Origin: Methylophilaceae bacterium
GTDB taxonomy: Bacteria > Pseudomonadota > Gammaproteobacteria > Burkholderiales > Methylophilaceae
Direction: 5' to 3'
NCBI GenBank assembly: GCA_031385945.1
Contig: JANNBX010000006.1
Coordinates: forward strand, 1 to 33,189
Length of the DNA: 33,189 nt
The notes beneath the pieces were generated by a model, which had not been told where the DNA came from, searched no databases, and was given only the letters and a program-made list of their open reading frames with translations. The position numbers and the translations under genes are program-made. This document shows, in pieces, positions 6,666-17,817 of this stretch; position 1 is the first letter of the stretch; every line of letters begins with the position of its first letter.

Positions 6666-8370
6666 AATTGTACAAAGGCAATATGATACAACAGCCGCCG
6701 CCAGCTTAGTCGAAAATGGTGTAAATGCAGTGCTTGCCAAAGTATTAAGCGCACGTGGTATTGTTGAAAAATCGCAACTTGAAAGCCACTTAAGCAATCT
6801 ACTGACGCCAGACAGCCTTACGAATAATGCGCAAATGGCGGTGTTACTGGCTGATGCCATTGCGGCGAATAAAAGCATTTTGATTATTGGCGATTACGAT
6901 GCAGATGGCGCCACAGCGACTGCCGTGGCGATGAAAGGCTTGAAGGTTTTTGGTGCCAAGGTTGATTTTTTAGTGCCAAATCGCTTTGAATACGGCTATG
7001 GCTTAACGCCTGAAATCGTTGATTTAGCCGCTACGCTACAGCCCGATATAATCATCACTGTGGATAATGGTATTGCCAGTATTGAAGGCGTTTTGCGCGC
7101 TAATCAATTGGGTATTCAAGTGCTGATTACCGACCACCATTTACCAGCGGAAACTACGCCTGCCGCCACTTGTATTATTAACCCCAATCAACACGGCTGT
7201 AACTTTAAAAGTAAAAACCTAGCAGGCGTAGGCGTGATGTTTTACTGCTTGCTGGCCTTACGTATTGAGCTACGCTCACGCGGTGCGTTTGATAGTAAGC
7301 CAGAGCCAAACTTGAGTAGTCTGTTAGATTTAGTCGCCCTTGGCACCGTGGCAGATTTAGTGCGCCTAGACGATAATAACCGCATCTTAGTTGAGCAAGG
7401 GTTGCAGCGTATTCGTGCAGGAAAATGCTCTGCAGGCATTACCGCATTGCTAAATATTGCAGGTCGTAGCCCACAACATGTGACAGCTCAAGACTTAGGT
7501 TTTTACGTAGGGCCAAGGCTCAACGCGGCTGGCAGACTAGATGATATGCGGCTAGGTATTCAATGTTTGCTCGCTGAAACAGAGCATGAAGCCAACACAT
7601 TAGCCCAAGAATTACACGACTTAAACGCTGAGCGCCGCAATATTGAAGCCGACATGCAAGACGGCGCGATGTTAGCGCTAGATAATTTAGACATTAAAGA
7701 CCAATACACCATCAGCATTTATCAAGCTGACTGGCATCAAGGTGTGATTGGCATTTTAGCCTCACGCATTAAAGAGCAGTTTCACCGCCCTGTGATTGTG
7801 TTTGCTGATGCGAACAATGGTGTTTTAAAGGGCTCTGGCCGCTCAATACCAGGCTTTCATCTGCGCGATGCGCTAGATTTAGTGACCAAACGCAAGTCTA
7901 ATTTGATACAAAAATTTGGTGGCCATGCCATGGCGGCTGGTTTAACCATTAGCCAAAATGACTTTGCTGAATTTCAAACAGCTTTTGAATCAGTTGCCAG
8001 GGAGCTGCTCAACGAAGCTGATTTAACAGCCGTGATTGCGACAGATGGCTCAATTTCTAGCACAGACATGACACTTGAAACTGCACAAATATTAGAAACA
8101 CAAGTGTGGGGGCAAGGCTTTGCTGAGCCTTTGTTTTACGACACGTTTAAGGTGGTAAGCCAAAAATTGTTGGGCGAAAAGCACTTAAAATTGCTGCTAA
8201 AAAAAGATGACCTGCAAAAAAATCAAACACAATTTGATGCCATATTTTTTAAGCAAACTGAGTTTCTGCCCGATGTCGTCAGTTTGGTATATCAATTTCA
8301 AACCAATACCTTCAGAGGCTTGCAAACGCTACAACTCATGGTGAAATATGCCGAAAATGCCAACCCATAA
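6658..8370 (+). CDS. recJ: Single-stranded-DNA-specific exonuclease RecJ.
   Basis: 570 aa with DHH motifs 'IIGDYDADGATATAV' and 'ITDHH' and a DHHA1 region 'GGHAMAAG'. Confidence 0.9.
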   Translation: MTEIVQRQYDTTAAASLVENGVNAVLAKVLSARGIVEKSQLESHLSNLLTPDSLTNNAQMAVLLADAIAANKSILIIGDYDADGATATAVAMKGLKVFGAKVDFLVPNRFEYGYGLTPEIVDLAATLQPDIIITVDNGIASIEGVLRANQLGIQVLITDHHLPAETTPAATCIINPNQHGCNFKSKNLAGVGVMFYCLLALRIELRSRGAFDSKPEPNLSSLLDLVALGTVADLVRLDDNNRILVEQGLQRIRAGKCSAGITALLNIAGRSPQHVTAQDLGFYVGPRLNAAGRLDDMRLGIQCLLAETEHEANTLAQELHDLNAERRNIEADMQDGAMLALDNLDIKDQYTISIYQADWHQGVIGILASRIKEQFHRPVIVFADANNGVLKGSGRSIPGFHLRDALDLVTKRKSNLIQKFGGHAMAAGLTISQNDFAEFQTAFESVARELLNEADLTAVIATDGSISSTDMTLETAQILETQVWGQGFAEPLFYDTFKVVSQKLLGEKHLKLLLKKDDLQKNQTQFDAIFFKQTEFLPDVVSLVYQFQTNTFRGLQTLQLMVKYAENANP

Positions 8371-8755
8371 AACGCTTAAATTAGTAGCTCGCTGGTTTGT
8401 ATTCACTTGGTTTTTTATCGGCGGCATCGCGCATTTCGCATACCCTGAGCCATTTTTACGGATTATGCCGCCGTATGTTCCATTTCATTTGGCTTGTGTT
8501 TATATCAGTGGTTTTTTTGAATTGCTGGGTGCGCTTGGCTTATGGGTTAAGCCGGTAGGCGGGCTTTATATAAGAGAGTTGGCGGGTTATGGTTTGATGC
8601 TGCTCACCGCTATTGTCACACTGGCCAATATACAAATGTTCCAGCATCCTGAGCTGTTTCCAAGCATTCCTTACTGGGTGTTGGTCATTCGCTTCCCCGT
8701 GCAGGGATTGCTGATTTGGCTGATTTGGTGGGCTTCACGCGAAGACACTACATAA
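8348..8755 (+). CDS. Small polytopic membrane protein (DoxX-like).
   Basis: 135 aa with 3-4 hydrophobic helices ('WFVFTWFFIGGIAHF', 'ISGFFELLGALGLW'). The family assignment is tentative. Confidence 0.4.
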   Translation: MPKMPTHKTLKLVARWFVFTWFFIGGIAHFAYPEPFLRIMPPYVPFHLACVYISGFFELLGALGLWVKPVGGLYIRELAGYGLMLLTAIVTLANIQMFQHPELFPSIPYWVLVIRFPVQGLLIWLIWWASREDTT

Positions 8756-8771
8756 ACCCACCAGTCAATAC

Positions 8772-11857
<3,086 letters not shown>

Positions 11858-12109
11858 TTAATGATTTTTATAAGTGATTATTATTTAATCGTATCTACAT
11901 TGATTATAGACGATAGCAGTAATTTTTTAAGGTCAGGTGAAAACTTTTAAAAAGACATAAGAACTTGTGGAAAACCAGCACATTTAAAGCAGTTGATGAT
12001 GTACCAACATTCAGTAATTAAAAAAGGGATTTAGTGATTGAAGCTGAAATTAAGCGATTGAAGCTGAGACTAGGTATTTAAAGGCAGGATAAGGCGGTTA
12101 AATACAGGA

Positions 12110-12901
12110 TTACGCGATTATTTCTTGCTCTTGTAGCTGTCGTAAAATACCTTCGCCAAAAGTGATTAAGGCTTGTGTATCTGCCTGACTTTCCATAACT
12201 GCTTGGCTAGCTGGGTCTTGTTTGTTGGCAGTTGTAGCTAAATTAACGCTGAGTTGTGTGAGCGCCTCAACACCTGTGTGTGGTTTATCTTTTAAAATAT
12301 GGAGTAGCTGAGCGGTGAGTTCATTTAGCTCAACAAATTGCACTTTAAATGCAGCGTTACGATATACCACCAAAAATATTGGCTGACTTAATGGTGCTGT
12401 GGGCTTATTTTTTGCAGATATTTGATGTACCGCAAAGTGGTATTTCACAAGCGCTATACTTGGGTTAACAACAATTTTTTGTGTCATTAAATCATGATTT
12501 TTAGGACTATTTTCACCACCAAAAGGAGCTGTTTGCATGCTGCTGACAGCCAGCTCTAGCCACTCGTAGTGCGCTAAACTGGTTAGGTAAACGGGTAAAT
12601 TTGGCTGTGTCGTTAAATAATTAAAAAAGGTTTTTGGAATATCTCTAAATAGTGGGCTTTGGCTAGGATAATGTGCAAAAAAATCGCGTACAAGCTTGCG
12701 CCAAGCGCGCTTGCCAAGTACCAATTGTAAAACTGGATAACAGGCTGAGACGCTAGAAAATATATTATTGAAAACAATTTCTGTATAAACCGCCATACGT
12801 TTTTTATCAACTTTAGCAGGTGCTTTATGATGTTTTGGATCACGTATATGCGCACAAAAAGCTTGTTGATATGCCTGAAAACTAGGGTGCTCTAATGCCA
12901 T
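12110..12901 (-). CDS. DUF2063 family protein (HvfC/BufC-like MNIO partner, putative precursor-binding/DNA-binding domain).
   Basis: The N-terminal 'FQAYQQAFCAHIRDP...RMAVYTEIVFNNI...YPSQSPLFRD' matches the DUF2063 signature. The start ATG lies 2 nt after the DUF692 stop. Confidence 0.75.
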   Translation of the reverse strand: MALEHPSFQAYQQAFCAHIRDPKHHKAPAKVDKKRMAVYTEIVFNNIFSSVSACYPVLQLVLGKRAWRKLVRDFFAHYPSQSPLFRDIPKTFFNYLTTQPNLPVYLTSLAHYEWLELAVSSMQTAPFGGENSPKNHDLMTQKIVVNPSIALVKYHFAVHQISAKNKPTAPLSQPIFLVVYRNAAFKVQFVELNELTAQLLHILKDKPHTGVEALTQLSVNLATTANKQDPASQAVMESQADTQALITFGEGILRQLQEQEIIA

Positions 12902-12903
12902 GA

Positions 12904-13815
12904 TTAAGCGCTTGCGAGTAATGGTTGAATGGCTTGATATTGACGTTGTAACACTGCTATTTGATTGATTTCATGCATTAAAATTGGTAAAGCAGGAATA
13001 TTAGTATCACGCTCTAATAAAGTAGGGAAAACACCATAAAGTTGATAGGCTTCTTCTAGCAATGCCCAAACCTCGGGCACAACATCCTGTGCGTGCGTAT
13101 CAATAATTAAGTTATCTGCCTCACGATCATGCCCAGCAATATGTGCATAAACAATACGCTCACCAGGAACACCGCGCAAAAATACGTGTGGGTCAAAACC
13201 AAAATTCACACTATTCACATAAATATTATTGATATCTAAATGCAAGTCACAATCTGCCTCACTCAATACCGCATTTAAAAAAGTTAGCTCATCCATGCTA
13301 GAAATAGGCGCTTCCGCATAGTAAGAAGTATTTTCAATAGCAATTCGTCGCTCTAGCGTGTCTTGTACTTGCTTAATGCGGTTAGCCACATAAAACACGG
13401 CTTCTTCTGTAAACGGTATGGGCAGTAAATCATGCATATAGCTCGGTTTACCTAAGTTTAAGTCACTGCAGTAACTCAGATGCTCAGTGTAGAGCACGAT
13501 TTTATGCTGGTTTAAAAAGCTTTTTACTTGCTGTAAAAAAAACGTATTCAGTGGGTCTGGCCCACCGAGAGATAATGATAAGCCGTGACAGGTAAGTGGG
13601 AAGCGTTCGGCAAGCCAAGCAATTTGAACTGCTTGTTTACCGCCCGCTTCTATCCAGTTTTCTGGTGCAATTTCTAAAAAACTAACATGCTCAATTAAAT
13701 CACTTTCAAATGCAGCTTGCAGCGGAGCAATTAACTCGCGCTTTAAGCCAAAGCCTGCACCTTTTAGCAGAGCCACATTTTTTGAGGCCGAATGAGTTTG
13801 ATTAGTTAGCACCAT
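12904..13815 (-). CDS. DUF692 multinuclear non-heme iron oxidative enzyme (MNIO; MbnB/HvfB/BufB-like).
   Basis: The N-terminal 'GAGFGLKRELI' and a TIM-barrel xylose-isomerase-like 'HLDINNIYVNSVNFGFDP' region are typical of DUF692. It sits between a Cys-motif precursor and DUF2063. Confidence 0.85.
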   Translation of the reverse strand: MVLTNQTHSASKNVALLKGAGFGLKRELIAPLQAAFESDLIEHVSFLEIAPENWIEAGGKQAVQIAWLAERFPLTCHGLSLSLGGPDPLNTFFLQQVKSFLNQHKIVLYTEHLSYCSDLNLGKPSYMHDLLPIPFTEEAVFYVANRIKQVQDTLERRIAIENTSYYAEAPISSMDELTFLNAVLSEADCDLHLDINNIYVNSVNFGFDPHVFLRGVPGERIVYAHIAGHDREADNLIIDTHAQDVVPEVWALLEEAYQLYGVFPTLLERDTNIPALPILMHEINQIAVLQRQYQAIQPLLASA

Positions 13816-13846
13816 TTATTGGCTATTCAATTATCTAGCAATTCAG

Positions 13847-14173
13847 TTATTTTTTGTCTGAATGGCAAGAGCCTTCTTTCATTTTGTCGGCTTTCATTTC
13901 ACCATGGCATGAGCCTTCTTTCATTTTGTCGCCCATTTTTTCACTTCCGCATGATGCTTCGGCGCCTTTTTCCATTTTTTCAGATTTAGCTGCGCCACAT
14001 TTACCAGTGCCACATTTGCCGTCTTTCATATCTTTGGCGTCTGCTACCATATAGCCTGATGTAAGTGCTTTTAATGCAAATGGATTAGTTGCTGCTGAAA
14101 CTTGCGTAGTGGCAATAGATGCAACAAAAGCGCCGCCAATAGCCAATGCAATAGCTGTTTTAGATGTGTTCAT
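13847..14173 (-). CDS. Exported Cys-motif precursor peptide (HvfA/bufferin-like MNIO substrate) with Met/Lys/His-rich tandem repeats.
   Basis: I refined the start to the ATG at 14173, with an AAGGAG RBS 7 nt upstream. The Sec signal peptide is 'MNTSKTAIALAIGGAFVASIATTQVSA'. The mature region 'DGKCGTGKCG...EASCGSEKMGDKMKEGSCHGEMKADKMKEGSCHSDKK' has 5 Cys in G/S-C-G/H motifs. It lies immediately upstream of DUF692. Confidence 0.7.
   Translation of the reverse strand: MNTSKTAIALAIGGAFVASIATTQVSAATNPFALKALTSGYMVADAKDMKDGKCGTGKCGAAKSEKMEKGAEASCGSEKMGDKMKEGSCHGEMKADKMKEGSCHSDKK
13865..13950. repeat. 42-nt tandem direct repeat inside the precursor gene, encoding 'KMKEGSCH' units.
   Basis: 'gagccttctttcattttgtcg' recurs at about 13870 and 13911. 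The protein shows KMKEGSCH-GEMKAD-KMKEGSCH. Confidence 0.75.
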
Positions 14174-14292
14174 GTGAAACTCCTTAAGATATATTAGATT
14201 TGATAACTCAAAAATCAGTTGCCTGTTAACGTCATTACTTGCAGTTATACGCATTCAATATTGAGTTAGATTCAACTAGCTTCGTTTTGAGA

Positions 14293-14547
14293 CTAAACCG
14301 TATTTGACTGATTGATTGCTTGAGTTACTTTATCGTGTACCGATTGCGGTAGGCGTATTTGATTATCTGATTCAATCGCTGTAGTCGTTTTACGTACACT
14401 TTTTTGTATCAACTTAAGTTGATTAGCAAAACGTGCACAAAATTTACAAATCATCAAATGTAGTTTAAGTGAGCATTTTTCACTAAACGTTAATCGACGA
14501 TCTAAATTGTGAGATAGCAACTGGCTGGCTTGTTTGCAACTTAACAT
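14293..14547 (-). CDS. Small soluble zf-HC2 (ChrR-like zinc-binding) anti-sigma factor.
   Basis: The 'H-LMI-C-KF-C' H-x3-C-x2-C motif plus further Cys residues, and no TM helix. The ATG at 14547 lies 1 nt after the sigma stop TAG. The tracked ORF begins at a TTG at 14559. Confidence 0.6.
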   Translation of the reverse strand: MLSCKQASQLLSHNLDRRLTFSEKCSLKLHLMICKFCARFANQLKLIQKSVRKTTTAIESDNQIRLPQSVHDKVTQAINQSNTV

Positions 14548-14548
14548 A

Positions 14549-15130
14549 CTATTTTTCAACCTCCAGCCAATGAATTTCTAAACATTTACGTAACCCCATT
14601 CGAGCGCGATATAGCATCACCCAAGCATTGGTCGTGGTGATGTCTAGTTCCTTACAAATAGTTTCGTTATCTTCTTCAATCACTTCACGCAGCATAAATA
14701 AAGCGGCTAATTTTTTAGGTAGTTTATCCATACAACTCTGTAATACACCTAAAAATTGCTTTTGTTCCAGCTCACCTTCTGGCGCATTCCAGCCCATCGG
14801 TGCGTCTATCCAATGGCCTTCATCATCAAAAAAGTCGTCTGCACCAGCTGTATCTGGAATATTTTCTTCATATACTAAAGCAGTGGTTTTCACTTGCACA
14901 CGCATCACATCAATAATTTTATGTTTCAAAATACCAGTCAGCCAGGTGCGTGGGCTAGACTGCTCAGCAAAGCTGGGACTTTTAATAGCGGCTAAGAACG
15001 TTTCTTGCACCACGTCTTCTGCTTGATGTGGGTCGCGTAAACGCGCTAGGGCAAAGCGATATAGATAGTCCCCGTGCTCGTTGAGCCAGTCATGGGCGCT
15101 AGCATTTGCAGCTTTATTAGTAGTGTTCAT
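14549..15130 (-). CDS. ECF-subfamily RNA polymerase sigma-70 factor.
   Basis: 193 aa. Region 2 'DVVQETFLAAIK' and the region 4 helix-turn-helix 'NAWVMLYRARMGLRKCL' are characteristic of ECF sigma factors. Confidence 0.8.
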   Translation of the reverse strand: MNTTNKAANASAHDWLNEHGDYLYRFALARLRDPHQAEDVVQETFLAAIKSPSFAEQSSPRTWLTGILKHKIIDVMRVQVKTTALVYEENIPDTAGADDFFDDEGHWIDAPMGWNAPEGELEQKQFLGVLQSCMDKLPKKLAALFMLREVIEEDNETICKELDITTTNAWVMLYRARMGLRKCLEIHWLEVEK

Positions 15131-15195
15131 AGGCGTATTGAAGCATAAAAATTAGGTTATTGCACCCCGCCTATTATATTGGCATGACAGTTCAC

Positions 15196-15630
15196 TCAGG
15201 TCGCTTTACTGTGCATACAAGCTAGGTAAGCGACTGCATCTGGTTGGTTATTTGTGCGCTGCGCTTGCCAAATAGTTTCTGCTAAACAATCCATTAAGTC
15301 ATGTTGCGCGAGCATGGCGTCTTGATGCTTAATTAACAGCGCTTGATAATGCCCTGCAATACCAATAGGCTGGTTAATTTGTACTTGCTCTAAAATAGAT
15401 AAATGTAGACTCATGTGCAAAAATGGATTGGTTTCACCCATCTCAGGGTAATAAGCTTGGCCGCGATATTTTTCAGGCTGGTTCAGTACTGTGTGATATT
15501 CCGCGTGCATGATCATCACTTCCACTGCAATTTTCTCAAGCGGCGTGAGGTCGGTTTGTGCGTTGAATTTAGCCCATGCGTCAAAGAAAAAGTCGCGTAC
15601 TTCGTCACGGCTAGGGTTAAATAATGCCAT
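15196..15630 (-). CDS. DUF1841-like hypothetical protein.
   Basis: The 'MALFNPSRDEVRDFFFDAWAKF' N-terminus recalls DUF1841. The start ATG lies 1 nt after the upstream gene's stop. Confidence 0.4.
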   Translation of the reverse strand: MALFNPSRDEVRDFFFDAWAKFNAQTDLTPLEKIAVEVMIMHAEYHTVLNQPEKYRGQAYYPEMGETNPFLHMSLHLSILEQVQINQPIGIAGHYQALLIKHQDAMLAQHDLMDCLAETIWQAQRTNNQPDAVAYLACMHSKAT

Positions 15631-15631
15631 A

Positions 15632-16510
15632 TCAATGCGCCTTAAAGAGTGCTAATACGCTAGTATTACTGCGTATAACGCAGGGTTTATTGCTGTCAAG
15701 CGATGGAACAATTTGGCCGTTACCTAAAAAACCTAACATTGGTAAATTACCGTAAATACTGTGAATCATCTTTAGTTTTTCATCCATTAAGGGTCTGGCT
15801 AACTTGGCAGATGTCTGCGTGCAAAAAGATAAGTCTGAAAGTGGTGAAAAGAGTAGTGCAAAGTCAGCTGATGCATGACTTGAATATTCTGCCGGGTGCG
15901 AGTCAAAAGCAAAGCTTGATTTTGAATCAGCACTAGAGTCAGTTGCAGAACTCAAATGAGATACAGGACTTAGATCAGTATTTGAGCTGGGTAATTGCAT
16001 GTTTTGCAAACTCACTTCAACACCAGTCATGGCTTTTTGTAAGTATGATTCTGGCGCACCTTTACCGTTTTTCCAAACGGTATAACTACCAAAACCAGTT
16101 GCATCGCCCGCCACCGCTCCAAAACGCATGCCTTGTTGCGTCATCCAAGAAGTATTAAGCGCGTGTGGCGCGGTAATGGTTAATATAGGTTGATTGGGCA
16201 GATTATCTGCAGGAATTGCCCACTGTAAGCTATCATCAATCACCAATACTGCAACGCCTGCGGCGTCAGTTACCCAATCTTCTTCAGTAAAAATACAAGG
16301 CGCCATACAACCAATAATTTGTGTAGTTTGTGCTGCAGCAGCAGCGGCTTGAATAGTGGCTGGTAGGTCTTTTGCAAAGTCAGGTGTTAACAATAAAATA
16401 ACACTGTTTGCACTGACTAAATTAGCGCGCGCTAATGCTGCTTGTATTGTTTTTTTAACCAAATCAGGTGTGGCAGTATGGCTAATACCGATGCTGCTAG
16501 CTACTTTCAT
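15632..16510 (-). CDS. Hypothetical protein (FIST-like?) with a Ser-rich linker, translationally coupled to nth.
   Basis: 292 aa. Its ATG overlaps the nth stop (ATGA). The N-terminal 'ASSIGISHTATPDLVKKTIQAAL' and C-terminal 'GFLGNGQI' weakly resemble FIST N/C domains. The central S/D/A-rich low-complexity segment is unusual. Confidence 0.35.
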   Translation of the reverse strand: MKVASSIGISHTATPDLVKKTIQAALARANLVSANSVILLLTPDFAKDLPATIQAAAAAAQTTQIIGCMAPCIFTEEDWVTDAAGVAVLVIDDSLQWAIPADNLPNQPILTITAPHALNTSWMTQQGMRFGAVAGDATGFGSYTVWKNGKGAPESYLQKAMTGVEVSLQNMQLPSSNTDLSPVSHLSSATDSSADSKSSFAFDSHPAEYSSHASADFALLFSPLSDLSFCTQTSAKLARPLMDEKLKMIHSIYGNLPMLGFLGNGQIVPSLDSNKPCVIRSNTSVLALFKAH

Positions 16511-17139
16511 ACAGTTTTTGCCTTATATTCACATAAGTCAGCAATCACGCATTCGCCACATTTAGGGCTACGCGCTGTGCACACGTAGCGACCATGCAAA
16601 ATTAGCAAATGATGCGCGTCTTTCATAAACTCAGTGGGTATGGTCTTCATGTATTTTTTTTCAACATCTACAACTGTTTTGCCAGTCGCTAGTTTTATAC
16701 GATTACCTAAGCGAAACAAGTGTGTATCTACCGCAATGACTGGCTGACCAAACGCTGTATTTAGAATAACATTCGCAGTTTTTCTACCTACTCCTGGCAG
16801 GGCTTCTAGTGCTTCACGCGTATTTGGAACGATAGATTGGTGTTGGTTAATCAGTATCTCGCATGTGGCTAATACGTTTTTAGCTTTGGCGTGATACAGC
16901 CCAATAGTTTTAATGTAACTTTCAAGCTGGCTTAAGCCAAGCGCAAATATCGCCTCTGGCGTGTTGGCCACGGGGAATAATCTCGCAGTAGCTTTATTTA
17001 CACCTACATCAGTTGATTGAGCCGATAACATCACAGCTATGAGCAGCTCAAAAACTGAGTCTGCACGTAATTCGGTTGTAGGATTTGGAATACTAAGGCT
17101 TAAACGCCGAAAAATTTCAAACCTTTTTTCAGCGTTCAT
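16507..17139 (-). CDS. nth: Endonuclease III (DNA-(apurinic/apyrimidinic site) lyase).
   Basis: HhH-GPD 'LPGVGRKTANVIL' and a C-terminal 4Fe-4S 'C-x6-C-x2-C-x5-C' motif. It follows rnfE as in E. coli. Confidence 0.9.
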   Translation of the reverse strand: MNAEKRFEIFRRLSLSIPNPTTELRADSVFELLIAVMLSAQSTDVGVNKATARLFPVANTPEAIFALGLSQLESYIKTIGLYHAKAKNVLATCEILINQHQSIVPNTREALEALPGVGRKTANVILNTAFGQPVIAVDTHLFRLGNRIKLATGKTVVDVEKKYMKTIPTEFMKDAHHLLILHGRYVCTARSPKCGECVIADLCEYKAKTV

Positions 17140-17145
17140 GTTGTG

Positions 17146-17817
17146 CTAAGCCACTTGTGGAGTTGGCAAACTTGCTAATTTTTCAGCTTTGCGTAGCTCA
17201 ATATAATTACGGCCTGCAATTAGCAATGCTAGGCCAATAAACGCGCCTGGCGGCAACACCGCGAGTAAAAAGCCATGATAATCAGGAATCACCGTTAGAA
17301 CAAACTGTTTAGCTGACTCACCAAGCGCTAAATCAACGCCTGAAAACAAAGTGCCTTTGCCAATAATTTCGCGCATGCCGCCTAATATTGATAACACAAA
17401 TGCTAAGCCTAAACCCATCATCAAACCATCAAGTGCTGATGCTGGTGTTGGGTTTTTAGCAGCAAACGCTTCAACACGGGCAAGCACTATACAATTAGTA
17501 ACTATTAACGGTATAAATATGCCGAGCACTTTGTGCAAATCGTGTGCGTATGCATTCATGCCTAAATCAATAAAGGTCACTAGTGCTGCAATAATTAAAA
17601 TAAACACTGGAATACGAATTTCGGCAGGCACGTAATTACGCACAGGTGAAACAGCTGCGTTACTCGCCATCATCACAAACGCTGTTAGTAAGCCTAAGCT
17701 AAAGCCGTTTACAAACGTGGTAGTCACCGCCAGTGTGGGGCACAAACCCAAAAACTGGACCACGCCCGGGTTTTGCTTCCATAGTCCGTTATTGATAATT
17801 TCTTGATACTTATTCAT
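17146..17817 (-). CDS. rnfE: Rnf electron transport complex subunit E.
   Basis: 'VVQFLGLCPTLAVTTT' and polytopic membrane topology. Last gene of the rnfABCDGE order. Confidence 0.9.
   Translation of the reverse strand: MNKYQEIINNGLWKQNPGVVQFLGLCPTLAVTTTFVNGFSLGLLTAFVMMASNAAVSPVRNYVPAEIRIPVFILIIAALVTFIDLGMNAYAHDLHKVLGIFIPLIVTNCIVLARVEAFAAKNPTPASALDGLMMGLGLAFVLSILGGMREIIGKGTLFSGVDLALGESAKQFVLTVIPDYHGFLLAVLPPGAFIGLALLIAGRNYIELRKAEKLASLPTPQVA

Follow-up and report, generated by a model that had tools for sequence, protein, structure and literature searches.

A putative hvfABC-type peptide modification operon adjoining an ECF sigma/anti-sigma pair in a Methylophilaceae bacterium

Results

Gene organization

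A 33,189-nucleotide stretch of DNA from a Methylophilaceae bacterium (contig JANNBX010000006.1, positions 1 to 33,189; hereafter the window) carries five co-directional minus-strand genes at 12110-15130, which encode in order an extracytoplasmic function (ECF) sigma factor, an anti-sigma factor, a small Cys-containing precursor peptide, HvfB and HvfC (Table 1). We read the cluster as an hvfABC-type operon (oxazolin or "captophorin" class) for a peptide that is made on the ribosome and then modified after translation (RiPP), and we give this explanation as a whole, including the function and regulation proposed below, a probability of about 0.75. The sigma stop codon TAG (14551-14549) and the anti-sigma ATG at 14547 are one base apart, as read from the sequence. 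Two bases, "tc", separate the HvfB TAA (12906-12904) from the HvfC ATG at 12901, and the precursor gene lies directly upstream of hvfB with a gap of 31 nt. A preliminary description of this DNA had listed five tightly spaced co-directional genes here, and the open reading frames (ORFs) as well as both short junctions agree with the sequence.

Table 1. Features of the hvfABC-type cluster in the window
Feature	Position	Strand	Basis
ECF sigma factor of 193 aa that comprises just regions 2 and 4	14549..15130	-	PF04542, PF08281, TIGR02943
Cytoplasmic anti-sigma factor of zinc-associated anti-sigma (ZAS) type, 84 aa	14293..14547	-	NF052368, ZAS motif, no transmembrane segment
Candidate ECF-type promoter TTGAATC-N17-CGTATAA	14245..14275	-	Motif recurrence in related loci
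Precursor, 108 aa	13847..14173	-	Start-site and homologue evidence
Predicted Sec signal peptide of precursor, residues 1-27, MNTSKTAIALAIGGAFVASIATTQVSA, cleavage VSA/AT	14093..14173	-	
Precursor core, 81 aa plus stop, five Cys, 7 Met	13847..14092	-	
HvfB-family peptide maturase (DUF692), 303 aa	12904..13815	-	PF05114, NF003818
HvfC partner, 263 aa: DUF2063 N-domain and NGO1945-type C-terminal domain resembling a RiPP recognition element (RRE)	12110..12901	-	PF09836, PF22106, NF050145

HvfB and HvfC

In profile searches, HvfB matched PF05114 with 321.8 bits (3.9e-96) and the NCBIfam equivalog NF003818 with 379.8 bits, above the curated cut-off of 360. The bufferin BufB model NF050167 gave 257.7 bits, under its cut-off of 310, and the methanobactin MbnB model TIGR04159 gave 28.7 bits (cut-off 325). 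The closest solved structure is PDB 3BWW (242 bits), a multinuclear non-heme iron oxidase (MNIO) from Histophilus, and the alignment to it keeps the motifs HGLSLSLGG, EHLS, ENTSYY, HLDINNIY, HIAGHD, DTH and LLERD. The D-x-H of MNIO site 3 and the catalytic Asp of the ERD motif are both present; the ligand roles are taken from the literature (PMC13097082). The residue that follows the catalytic Asp is Thr (ERD-T). By motif equivalence with the ERD-F of 3BWW and of a distant cluster, L168 (loci from other genomes are numbered with L), this is the selectivity position discussed below.

HvfC matched PF09836 (5e-26, 91 bits) and PF22106 (1e-20, 74 bits), exceeded the cut-off of the equivalog NF050145 (247.6 versus 142 bits) and matched PDB 3DEE, the Neisseria protein NGO1945, at 1e-08. 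Homology thus identifies an HvfB-type multinuclear non-heme iron oxidase, its HvfC partner (DUF2063/RRE, the type called PME1) and a 108-aa Cys-bearing substrate with predicted Sec export. The preliminary description had named the same gene families, and the profile searches returned Pfam matches for them, DUF692 and DUF2063 included; its placement of the cluster in the HvfA/bufferin-type class (MNIO and DUF2063 proteins with a Sec-exported Cys precursor) is backed by the profile and PDB matches as well. In locus L001 (6007-7653), HvfB and HvfC are read from a single 548-aa ORF with no stop codon between them. This is an apparent natural fusion, or possibly a sequencing error, and it resembles the engineered fusion of a 2026 HvfBC preprint.

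Precursor peptide

The precursor ORF reads as 135 aa from an upstream ATG and as 108 aa from the ATG at 14173. We favoured the shorter product because AAGGAG lies 7 nt upstream of its start, the homologues share that Met, and the -10 element of the candidate promoter overlaps the upstream ATG. The predicted signal peptide has a basic n-region (K5), a hydrophobic core (Kyte-Doolittle 1.73 over 19 residues) and an A-x-A-like cleavage site; A27 is invariant and A28 almost so across 98 precursor homologues. Export would be by Sec, as it is for HvfA and the bufferins (PMC11252979, PMC12452194).

The mature part opens with NPFAxKxLxSGYxVA, the most conserved segment of the precursor family, which also occurs in the distant cluster L168 and is probably the segment recognized by HvfC. 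After it come K(M)KDGKCGTGKCG and 10-residue repeats, variable in number, of the form K(A/M)KEG(K/S/A/N)C(G/S/H)A(E/D), in which E/D at -3 and G at -2 relative to Cys are almost fixed. The five Cys motifs of the window precursor are DGKCG, TGKCG, EASCG, EGSCH and EGSCH. Cys-His is present in 16 of 77 family members, chiefly as the last motif, and two such sites occur only in the window precursor and one other. Met makes up 8.9% of the peptide, roughly double the median for the family.

Searches of the precursor gave no Pfam match, none to DUF2282, and no match to NF050188 at E<=0.01. Against NF050137 (HvfA domain) it scores 18.7 bits, with a cut-off of 19.5, and it contains a single KCGxGKCG pair. 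Among its 98 closest homologues, 83 match the HvfA model NF050188 and 69 match NF050137; the signal peptide and core are kept across 76 loci and 98 database homologues, and the GKCG Cys residues are invariant. The window precursor is a fringe member, Cys-His-containing and Met-rich, of a continuum. The preliminary description had suggested a comparison with DUF2282 and EGKCG-type models, which gave no match to the former and the near-threshold score above for the HvfA domain. It had also called this precursor variant uncharacterised, which holds for experiments, but the peptide is an extreme in a graded series whose family is already catalogued.

The lack of a Pfam match and the score under the NCBIfam threshold would fit a cluster that makes no RiPP at all, in which the small ORF encodes an unmodified low-complexity periplasmic protein and the DUF692 and DUF2063 proteins act elsewhere. 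We consider this very improbable, given the strict A-B-C adjacency in every locus compared, the recognition of the homologues as HvfA, the invariant GKCG cysteines and the scores of HvfB and HvfC above their equivalog thresholds.

Conservation of the locus

A scan with HvfB as query, one genome per species, found matches only in Methylophilaceae and close betaproteobacterial metagenome-assembled genomes, with 62-70% identity. About 70 of 80 loci share one gene order: nth, FIST-like gene, DUF1841, sigma, anti-sigma, precursor, hvfB, hvfC. This synteny argues for a vertically inherited core locus of the Methylophilaceae and not an island; the G+C content of the cluster is unremarkable. A convergent gene follows hvfC in relatives, which indicates that the operon ends there. 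In the window and in relatives alike, the interval from nth to the gene that follows hvfC contains no DoxX gene. A 135-aa DoxX_2-like ORF is located at 8348-8755 on the plus strand, 3.4 kb from hvfC. It matches PF13564 with 27.3 bits, just over the cut-off, and not PF07681, the DoxX family usual in hvf clusters.

Sigma and anti-sigma factors

The sigma factor matched Sigma70_r2 (PF04542, 2.6e-15), Sigma70_r4_2 (PF08281, 2.9e-07) and TIGR02943 (200.1 bits, cut-off 162). A PDB comparison found only distant relationship to ECF sigma factors of solved structure, and the protein shows 63-75% identity across more than 70 Methylophilaceae loci. The anti-sigma factor matched the "antisigmaE" model NF052368 with 66 bits (cut-off 50), while its zf-HC2 score of 20 bits is just short of the cut-off of 22.2; no relative was found in PDB. 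An identical 84-aa product has already been recorded as a gene call. Its motif C4-x25-H30-x3-C34-x2-C37, with an additional Cys25, fits the ZAS pattern C/H-x23-26-H-x3-C-x2-C, which is kept in 73 of 74 homologues, 70 of them with Cys at position 4. There is no hydrophobic segment (maximum Kyte-Doolittle 0.94 over 19 residues). The soluble anti-sigma with an H-x3-C-x2-C site and extra Cys in the preliminary description stands. The same description had suggested that metal or thiol sensing triggers the operon. The ECF/ZAS part of this idea holds, but the inducers documented in Neisseria and Haemophilus are oxidants, and metal sensing is not among them. By analogy with MseR, HrsE and RsrA, the window protein would bind zinc and the sigma factor and release the latter upon thiol oxidation.

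The spacer upstream of the sigma gene (15131-15195) contains a conserved element, ATG(A/C)TT(G/C)AATA, located 5-12 nt ahead of the sigma ATG; its form in the window is ATGCTTCAATACGCC. The DUF1841-sigma spacers of L002, L003, L005, L007, L008, L023, L025-L027, L052, L054, L070, L071 and L077 carry it too. The element reads as a mini-ORF of 3-9 codons (M-I/L-E/Q-...), whose end in many cases coincides or overlaps with the start of sigma, and may serve in translational coupling or as a leader.

Candidate ECF promoter

The candidate promoter between the anti-sigma and precursor genes, found by anchoring on CGTA, is wholly non-coding in the window (14275-14245, minus strand). The predicted transcription start is close to 14238, some 65 nt ahead of the ATG of the precursor. 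The motif has a single match in the 33-kb window against 0.11 expected, and 15 other loci have the exact motif at the equivalent position, always with a 17-nt spacer. In a position weight matrix (PWM) scan, 23 of 74 loci scored above the 99th percentile of random windows; the PWM was built from 16 of those 23 loci, the window included. The cultured strains Methylotenera mobilis 13 (L073) and Methylovorus (L008, L025) have weak copies of the promoter. In the other loci the final codons of the anti-sigma gene (Ile-Glu-Ser) form part of the -35 element, with the -10 element coming after the stop codon. The anti-sigma gene of the window ends 44 nt earlier, and the presence of the motif in non-coding DNA here suggests that selection acts on the DNA element as such. 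Taken as a whole, the motif is similar to the Bacillus subtilis sigmaW consensus TGAAAC-N16-CGTATA. The -10 CGTATAA also resembles the Neisseria sigmaE -10 CGTCTAA (PMC2893595). The candidate ECF-type promoter immediately ahead of the precursor is independent support for ECF control of the operon, as put forward in the preliminary description.

An identical motif was found in L168 (4204-7744), a distant and GC-richer cluster, where it lies in an AT-rich island followed by an EGKCG-type precursor, HvfB (ERD-Phe), HvfC and a true DoxX. It is downstream of an ECF sigma gene (cut by the contig end) and a gene for a 230-aa RskA-type membrane anti-sigma factor. One promoter motif is thus paired with different anti-sigma classes in the window and L168.

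Several other candidates were rejected. Gibbs sampling over the anti-sigma end and the intergenic region converged on coding conservation of the anti-sigma C-terminus and not on a promoter. A sigma-70 reading, TTGAAT...TATAAC, would have a 20-nt spacer, and generic sigma-70 and terminator scans gave results at chance level. A PWM-like sequence (ATTGAATCCACTTCATCAATCA..GCGTA) about 4 kb downstream of hvfB was considered as a second target (L038 9931, L045 11854, L057 9995, L042 10066, L055 11919 and others). In L073 it is inside an opposite-strand 907-aa ORF with the spacer conserved like coding sequence, and it is considered coincidental. A scan of metagenome contigs for the exact motif proved unusable as a regulon test, as 117 of the 120 matches listed were chance, mostly on low-G+C contigs; L101, L148 and L168 were among the matches listed.

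Two-block enumeration, k-mer counts and PWM scans upstream of the sigma gene, directed at an autoregulatory promoter, found only DUF1841 coding conservation and a tiny motif resembling an upstream ORF. In many relatives the DUF1841 stop codon overlaps or abuts the sigma start. From these two observations, the sigma and anti-sigma factors would be made from upstream transcription, with the ECF promoter driving precursor-hvfBC.

Instead of being dedicated to this operon, as the preliminary description had it, the pair may be an ECF system for oxidative stress in general, with hvfABC as only one target in a larger regulon (e.g., msrAB). We put this at a little under an even chance. In N. meningitidis and H. 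influenzae, msrAB and further genes are likewise under the homologous pairs (PMC2893595, PMC3240639, PMC7907618), the motif count covers 33 kb of this genome only, and L075 has hvfABC without the pair. Set against this, the pair stays attached to hvfABC in about 70 of 80 species, the motif occurs once in the window, and the Neisseria regulon is very small. L075 (5001-7602) is the only locus with DUF1841 directly before the precursor and hvfBC, a natural deletion variant; its precursor motifs are all of KCG type and its HvfB has ERD-Ile.

Cysteine selectivity

The maturase FonBC requires the residue after Cys to be Gly or Ala, and turnover is blocked when it is charged; FonB Phe250, beside the catalytic Asp249, helps set that selectivity (PMC13097082). 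At the equivalent position of the Methylophilaceae enzymes, 23 of 24 loci with all-Cys-Gly precursors have ERD-Ser, whereas 44 of 45 loci with Cys-Ser or Cys-His precursors have ERD-Asn, -Thr, -Ile, -Leu or -Met. The ERD-Ser state appears in at least three separate places on the HvfB tree. This covariation, which is confounded by phylogeny, suggests enzyme-substrate co-evolution, so that the non-canonical sites would be modified.

In a partial-modification variant, only DGKCG and TGKCG (perhaps EASCG) would be converted to 5-thiooxazole, and the EGSCH cysteines would be left as free thiols acting as metal ligands together with the adjacent His and nearby Met. The restriction to Gly/Ala and the block by charged residues (PMC13097082), along with the rarity of Cys-His and its position chiefly in the last motif, favour such partial modification. 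The E/D-G-x-C frame and the 10-residue repeat, however, are equally strict around Cys-Ser/Cys-His and Cys-Gly, the selectivity residue changes with the motif type in at least three separate clades, and FonBC did process one Cys-Tyr substrate (PMC13097082). On balance we regard partial modification as rather unlikely.

A bolder proposal is that Methylophilaceae HvfB, with Thr or Asn/Ile/Leu in place of Phe/Ser, has widened the substrate rule to Ser/His-flanked Cys, that the product contains mixed metal sites of thiooxazole, imidazole and Met thioether, and that the operon is run from an internal, non-autoregulated ECF promoter. We offer this combination tentatively, with the odds against it. 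If true, the widened substrate rule would give metal affinity or specificity differing from that of the EGKCG products.

Other genes in the neighbourhood

Upstream of the sigma gene (15196-17817, and further to about 22980), rnf-like genes, nth, the FIST-like ORF and DUF1841 form a packed co-directional array leading into it, with 4-nt overlaps or gaps of 1-6 nt. A literature search on DUF1841 gave no papers. On the other side, a gene for a 475-aa SPFH/flotillin-like protein (10430-11857, minus strand) begins 250 nt after hvfC. It is not conserved in relatives and has a sigma-70-like site of its own at 11930-11903 (TTAAAA-16-TATAAT, 10/12). Rfam searches over 11800-15800 gave nothing relevant.

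Discussion

Proposed function and regulation

In the mechanism that we propose, the sigma and anti-sigma genes are probably transcribed with the upstream genes, and the zinc/thiol ZAS anti-sigma would hold the sigma factor until oxidant or thiol-reactive stress frees it. The freed sigma factor would then fire TTGAATC-N17-CGTATAA ahead of precursor-hvfB-hvfC. In the cytoplasm HvfC would bind the precursor, probably via NPFAxKxLxSGYxVA, and HvfB would oxidize its Cys residues to 5-thiooxazoles with a loss of 4 Da each, by analogy with characterized members. The modified peptide would be exported by Sec with loss of the 27-residue signal peptide, and by the same analogy it would bind and buffer periplasmic Cu(I), to which Met and His may add ligands. 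The features of the class product are Cys-derived 5-thiooxazole (-4 Da), absorption at about 305 nm and Cu binding. We infer this function because the chemistry, the Cu binding and the ECF control are established for homologues (PMC11252979, PMC13097082, PMC11626156, PMC2893595, PMC7907618).

Several points weigh against this interpretation. The precursor is marginally under the NCBIfam HvfA cut-off and has one canonical KCGxGKCG pair only. The cluster is without a DoxX gene, which is frequent but not universal in the class. No autoregulatory copy of the motif was found upstream of the sigma gene, no more than roughly a quarter to a third of the related loci have a recognisable promoter copy, and that the window sigma factor reads this promoter is an inference. 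With the FonBC Gly/Ala-only rule, the two SCH sites may stay unmodified (PMC13097082).

The core of the window peptide is rich in Met and His, which is typical of periplasmic Cu(I) sites and speaks against a main role other than Cu buffering, such as oxidant/HOCl scavenging or defence, or the binding of another soft metal. Every characterized MNIO-PME1 cluster product also binds Cu (PMC11252979, PMC11626156, PMC13097082). Such a role is improbable, even though homologous operons are induced by HOCl/H2O2 (PMC7907618) and what EGKCG-type products do physiologically is still described as unresolved (PMC13097082).

The conceptual gain is small: publications already cover the class, the chemistry and the ECF/ZAS control, and two of the genes are named by standard annotation models. 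The analysis goes modestly beyond the literature with a candidate promoter, family-wide conservation in methylotrophs, the absence of DoxX, and a Cys-His-containing, Met-rich precursor with ERD-X covariation. The locus is a vertically conserved core locus of the Methylophilaceae, which are abundant freshwater methylotrophs and include cultured strains with the same locus. A defined candidate promoter is supplied for the ECF sigma factor, and the natural precursor series (Cys-Gly, Cys-Ser, Cys-His), paired with changes at the HvfB selectivity residue, forms a test set for Cys selection.

Comparison with known systems

The name captophorins has been given to the whole MNIO-PME1 group (bufferins, oxazolin, fontiphorin and gonophorin), of which RefSeq contains more than 20,000 clusters (PMC13097082), and the Buf_EGKCG/oxazolin precursor family of about 2,000 proteins has been catalogued (PMC12452194). 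In nontypeable H. influenzae, HvfABC produces the secreted, Cu-binding peptide oxazolin (PMC11252979). The HvfB product has been reassigned from oxazolone/thioamide to 5-thiooxazole (PMC13097082; bioRxiv 10.64898/2026.07.17.739211), so the oxazolone-thioamide chemistry given in the preliminary description is outdated. The window cluster shares with the Haemophilus system the HvfB and HvfC NCBIfam equivalogs, the A-B-C order, the Sec signal peptide, Cys in E-G-x-C-G frames and an ECF sigma factor with a small cytoplasmic ZAS anti-sigma. In Haemophilus these are RpoE2 and the 67-aa HrsE, and the doxX-hvf operon is turned on after HOCl (PMC7907618). Haemophilus HvfA contains three AEGKCGEGKCG units as well as a disulfide at its N-terminus, whereas the window peptide has one KCGxGKCG, one SCG, two SCH, no N-terminal Cys and many Met. 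The DoxX protein HvfX belongs to the Haemophilus system, where the sigma/anti-sigma pair is elsewhere, next to msrAB; in the window there is no DoxX and the pair is immediately upstream. The window enzyme has ERD-Thr in place of the ERD-Phe of 3BWW, which is reported to be 72% identical to HvfB.

In N. meningitidis, NMB2140-2145 encode DoxX, precursor, MNIO, DUF2063, sigmaE and MseR in one operon, and MseR Cys4 and the ZAS cysteines are essential (PMC2893595). The window shares the precursor, the MNIO, the DUF2063 protein (NGO1945, PDB 3DEE), the ECF sigma factor and a ZAS anti-sigma with the corresponding Cys4 with this system (NGO1948-1943 in the gonococcus; product gonophorin) (PMC2893595, PMC3240639, PMC13097082). 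ECF/ZAS control of captophorin clusters is already experimental knowledge in Neisseria and Haemophilus, and the link is not new. The Neisseria order is DoxX-A-B-C-sigma-antisigma behind one autoregulated upstream promoter, while the window has sigma-antisigma-[promoter]-A-B-C without DoxX. The Neisseria -35 is GTMAGBWTT with a spacer of 12-13, in contrast to TTGAATC and 17 in the window, and the window HvfC is distant from NGO1945 (38 bits).

Fontiphorin FonABC is likewise a minimal three-gene MNIO-PME1-precursor cluster without DoxX that follows the EGKCG-type 5-mer logic (PMC13097082). Its product is a Cu-binding 5-thiooxazole (PMC13097082; Buf_EGKCG/oxazolin family, PMC12452194), and the same product is assigned to the window provisionally, by class. 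FonB has Phe after the catalytic Asp and needs Gly/Ala after Cys, whereas the window enzyme has Thr and a substrate with Ser before and His after Cys. The bufferins BufABC (PMC11626156, PMC3511200) share the MNIO and DUF2063 partner, the Sec-exported precursor and the ECF sigma link, and protection from Cu stress is counted as a shared function, for the window by homology. They differ in their membrane anti-sigma NrsF (SigF/NrsF control), compared with the soluble ZAS protein here, and in the DUF2282/Buf2 precursor, which the window lacks. Methanobactin MbnABC is the most different in design, with an MbnC partner and a leader-peptide precursor without signal peptide, in place of the DUF2063 partner and signal peptide found in the window.

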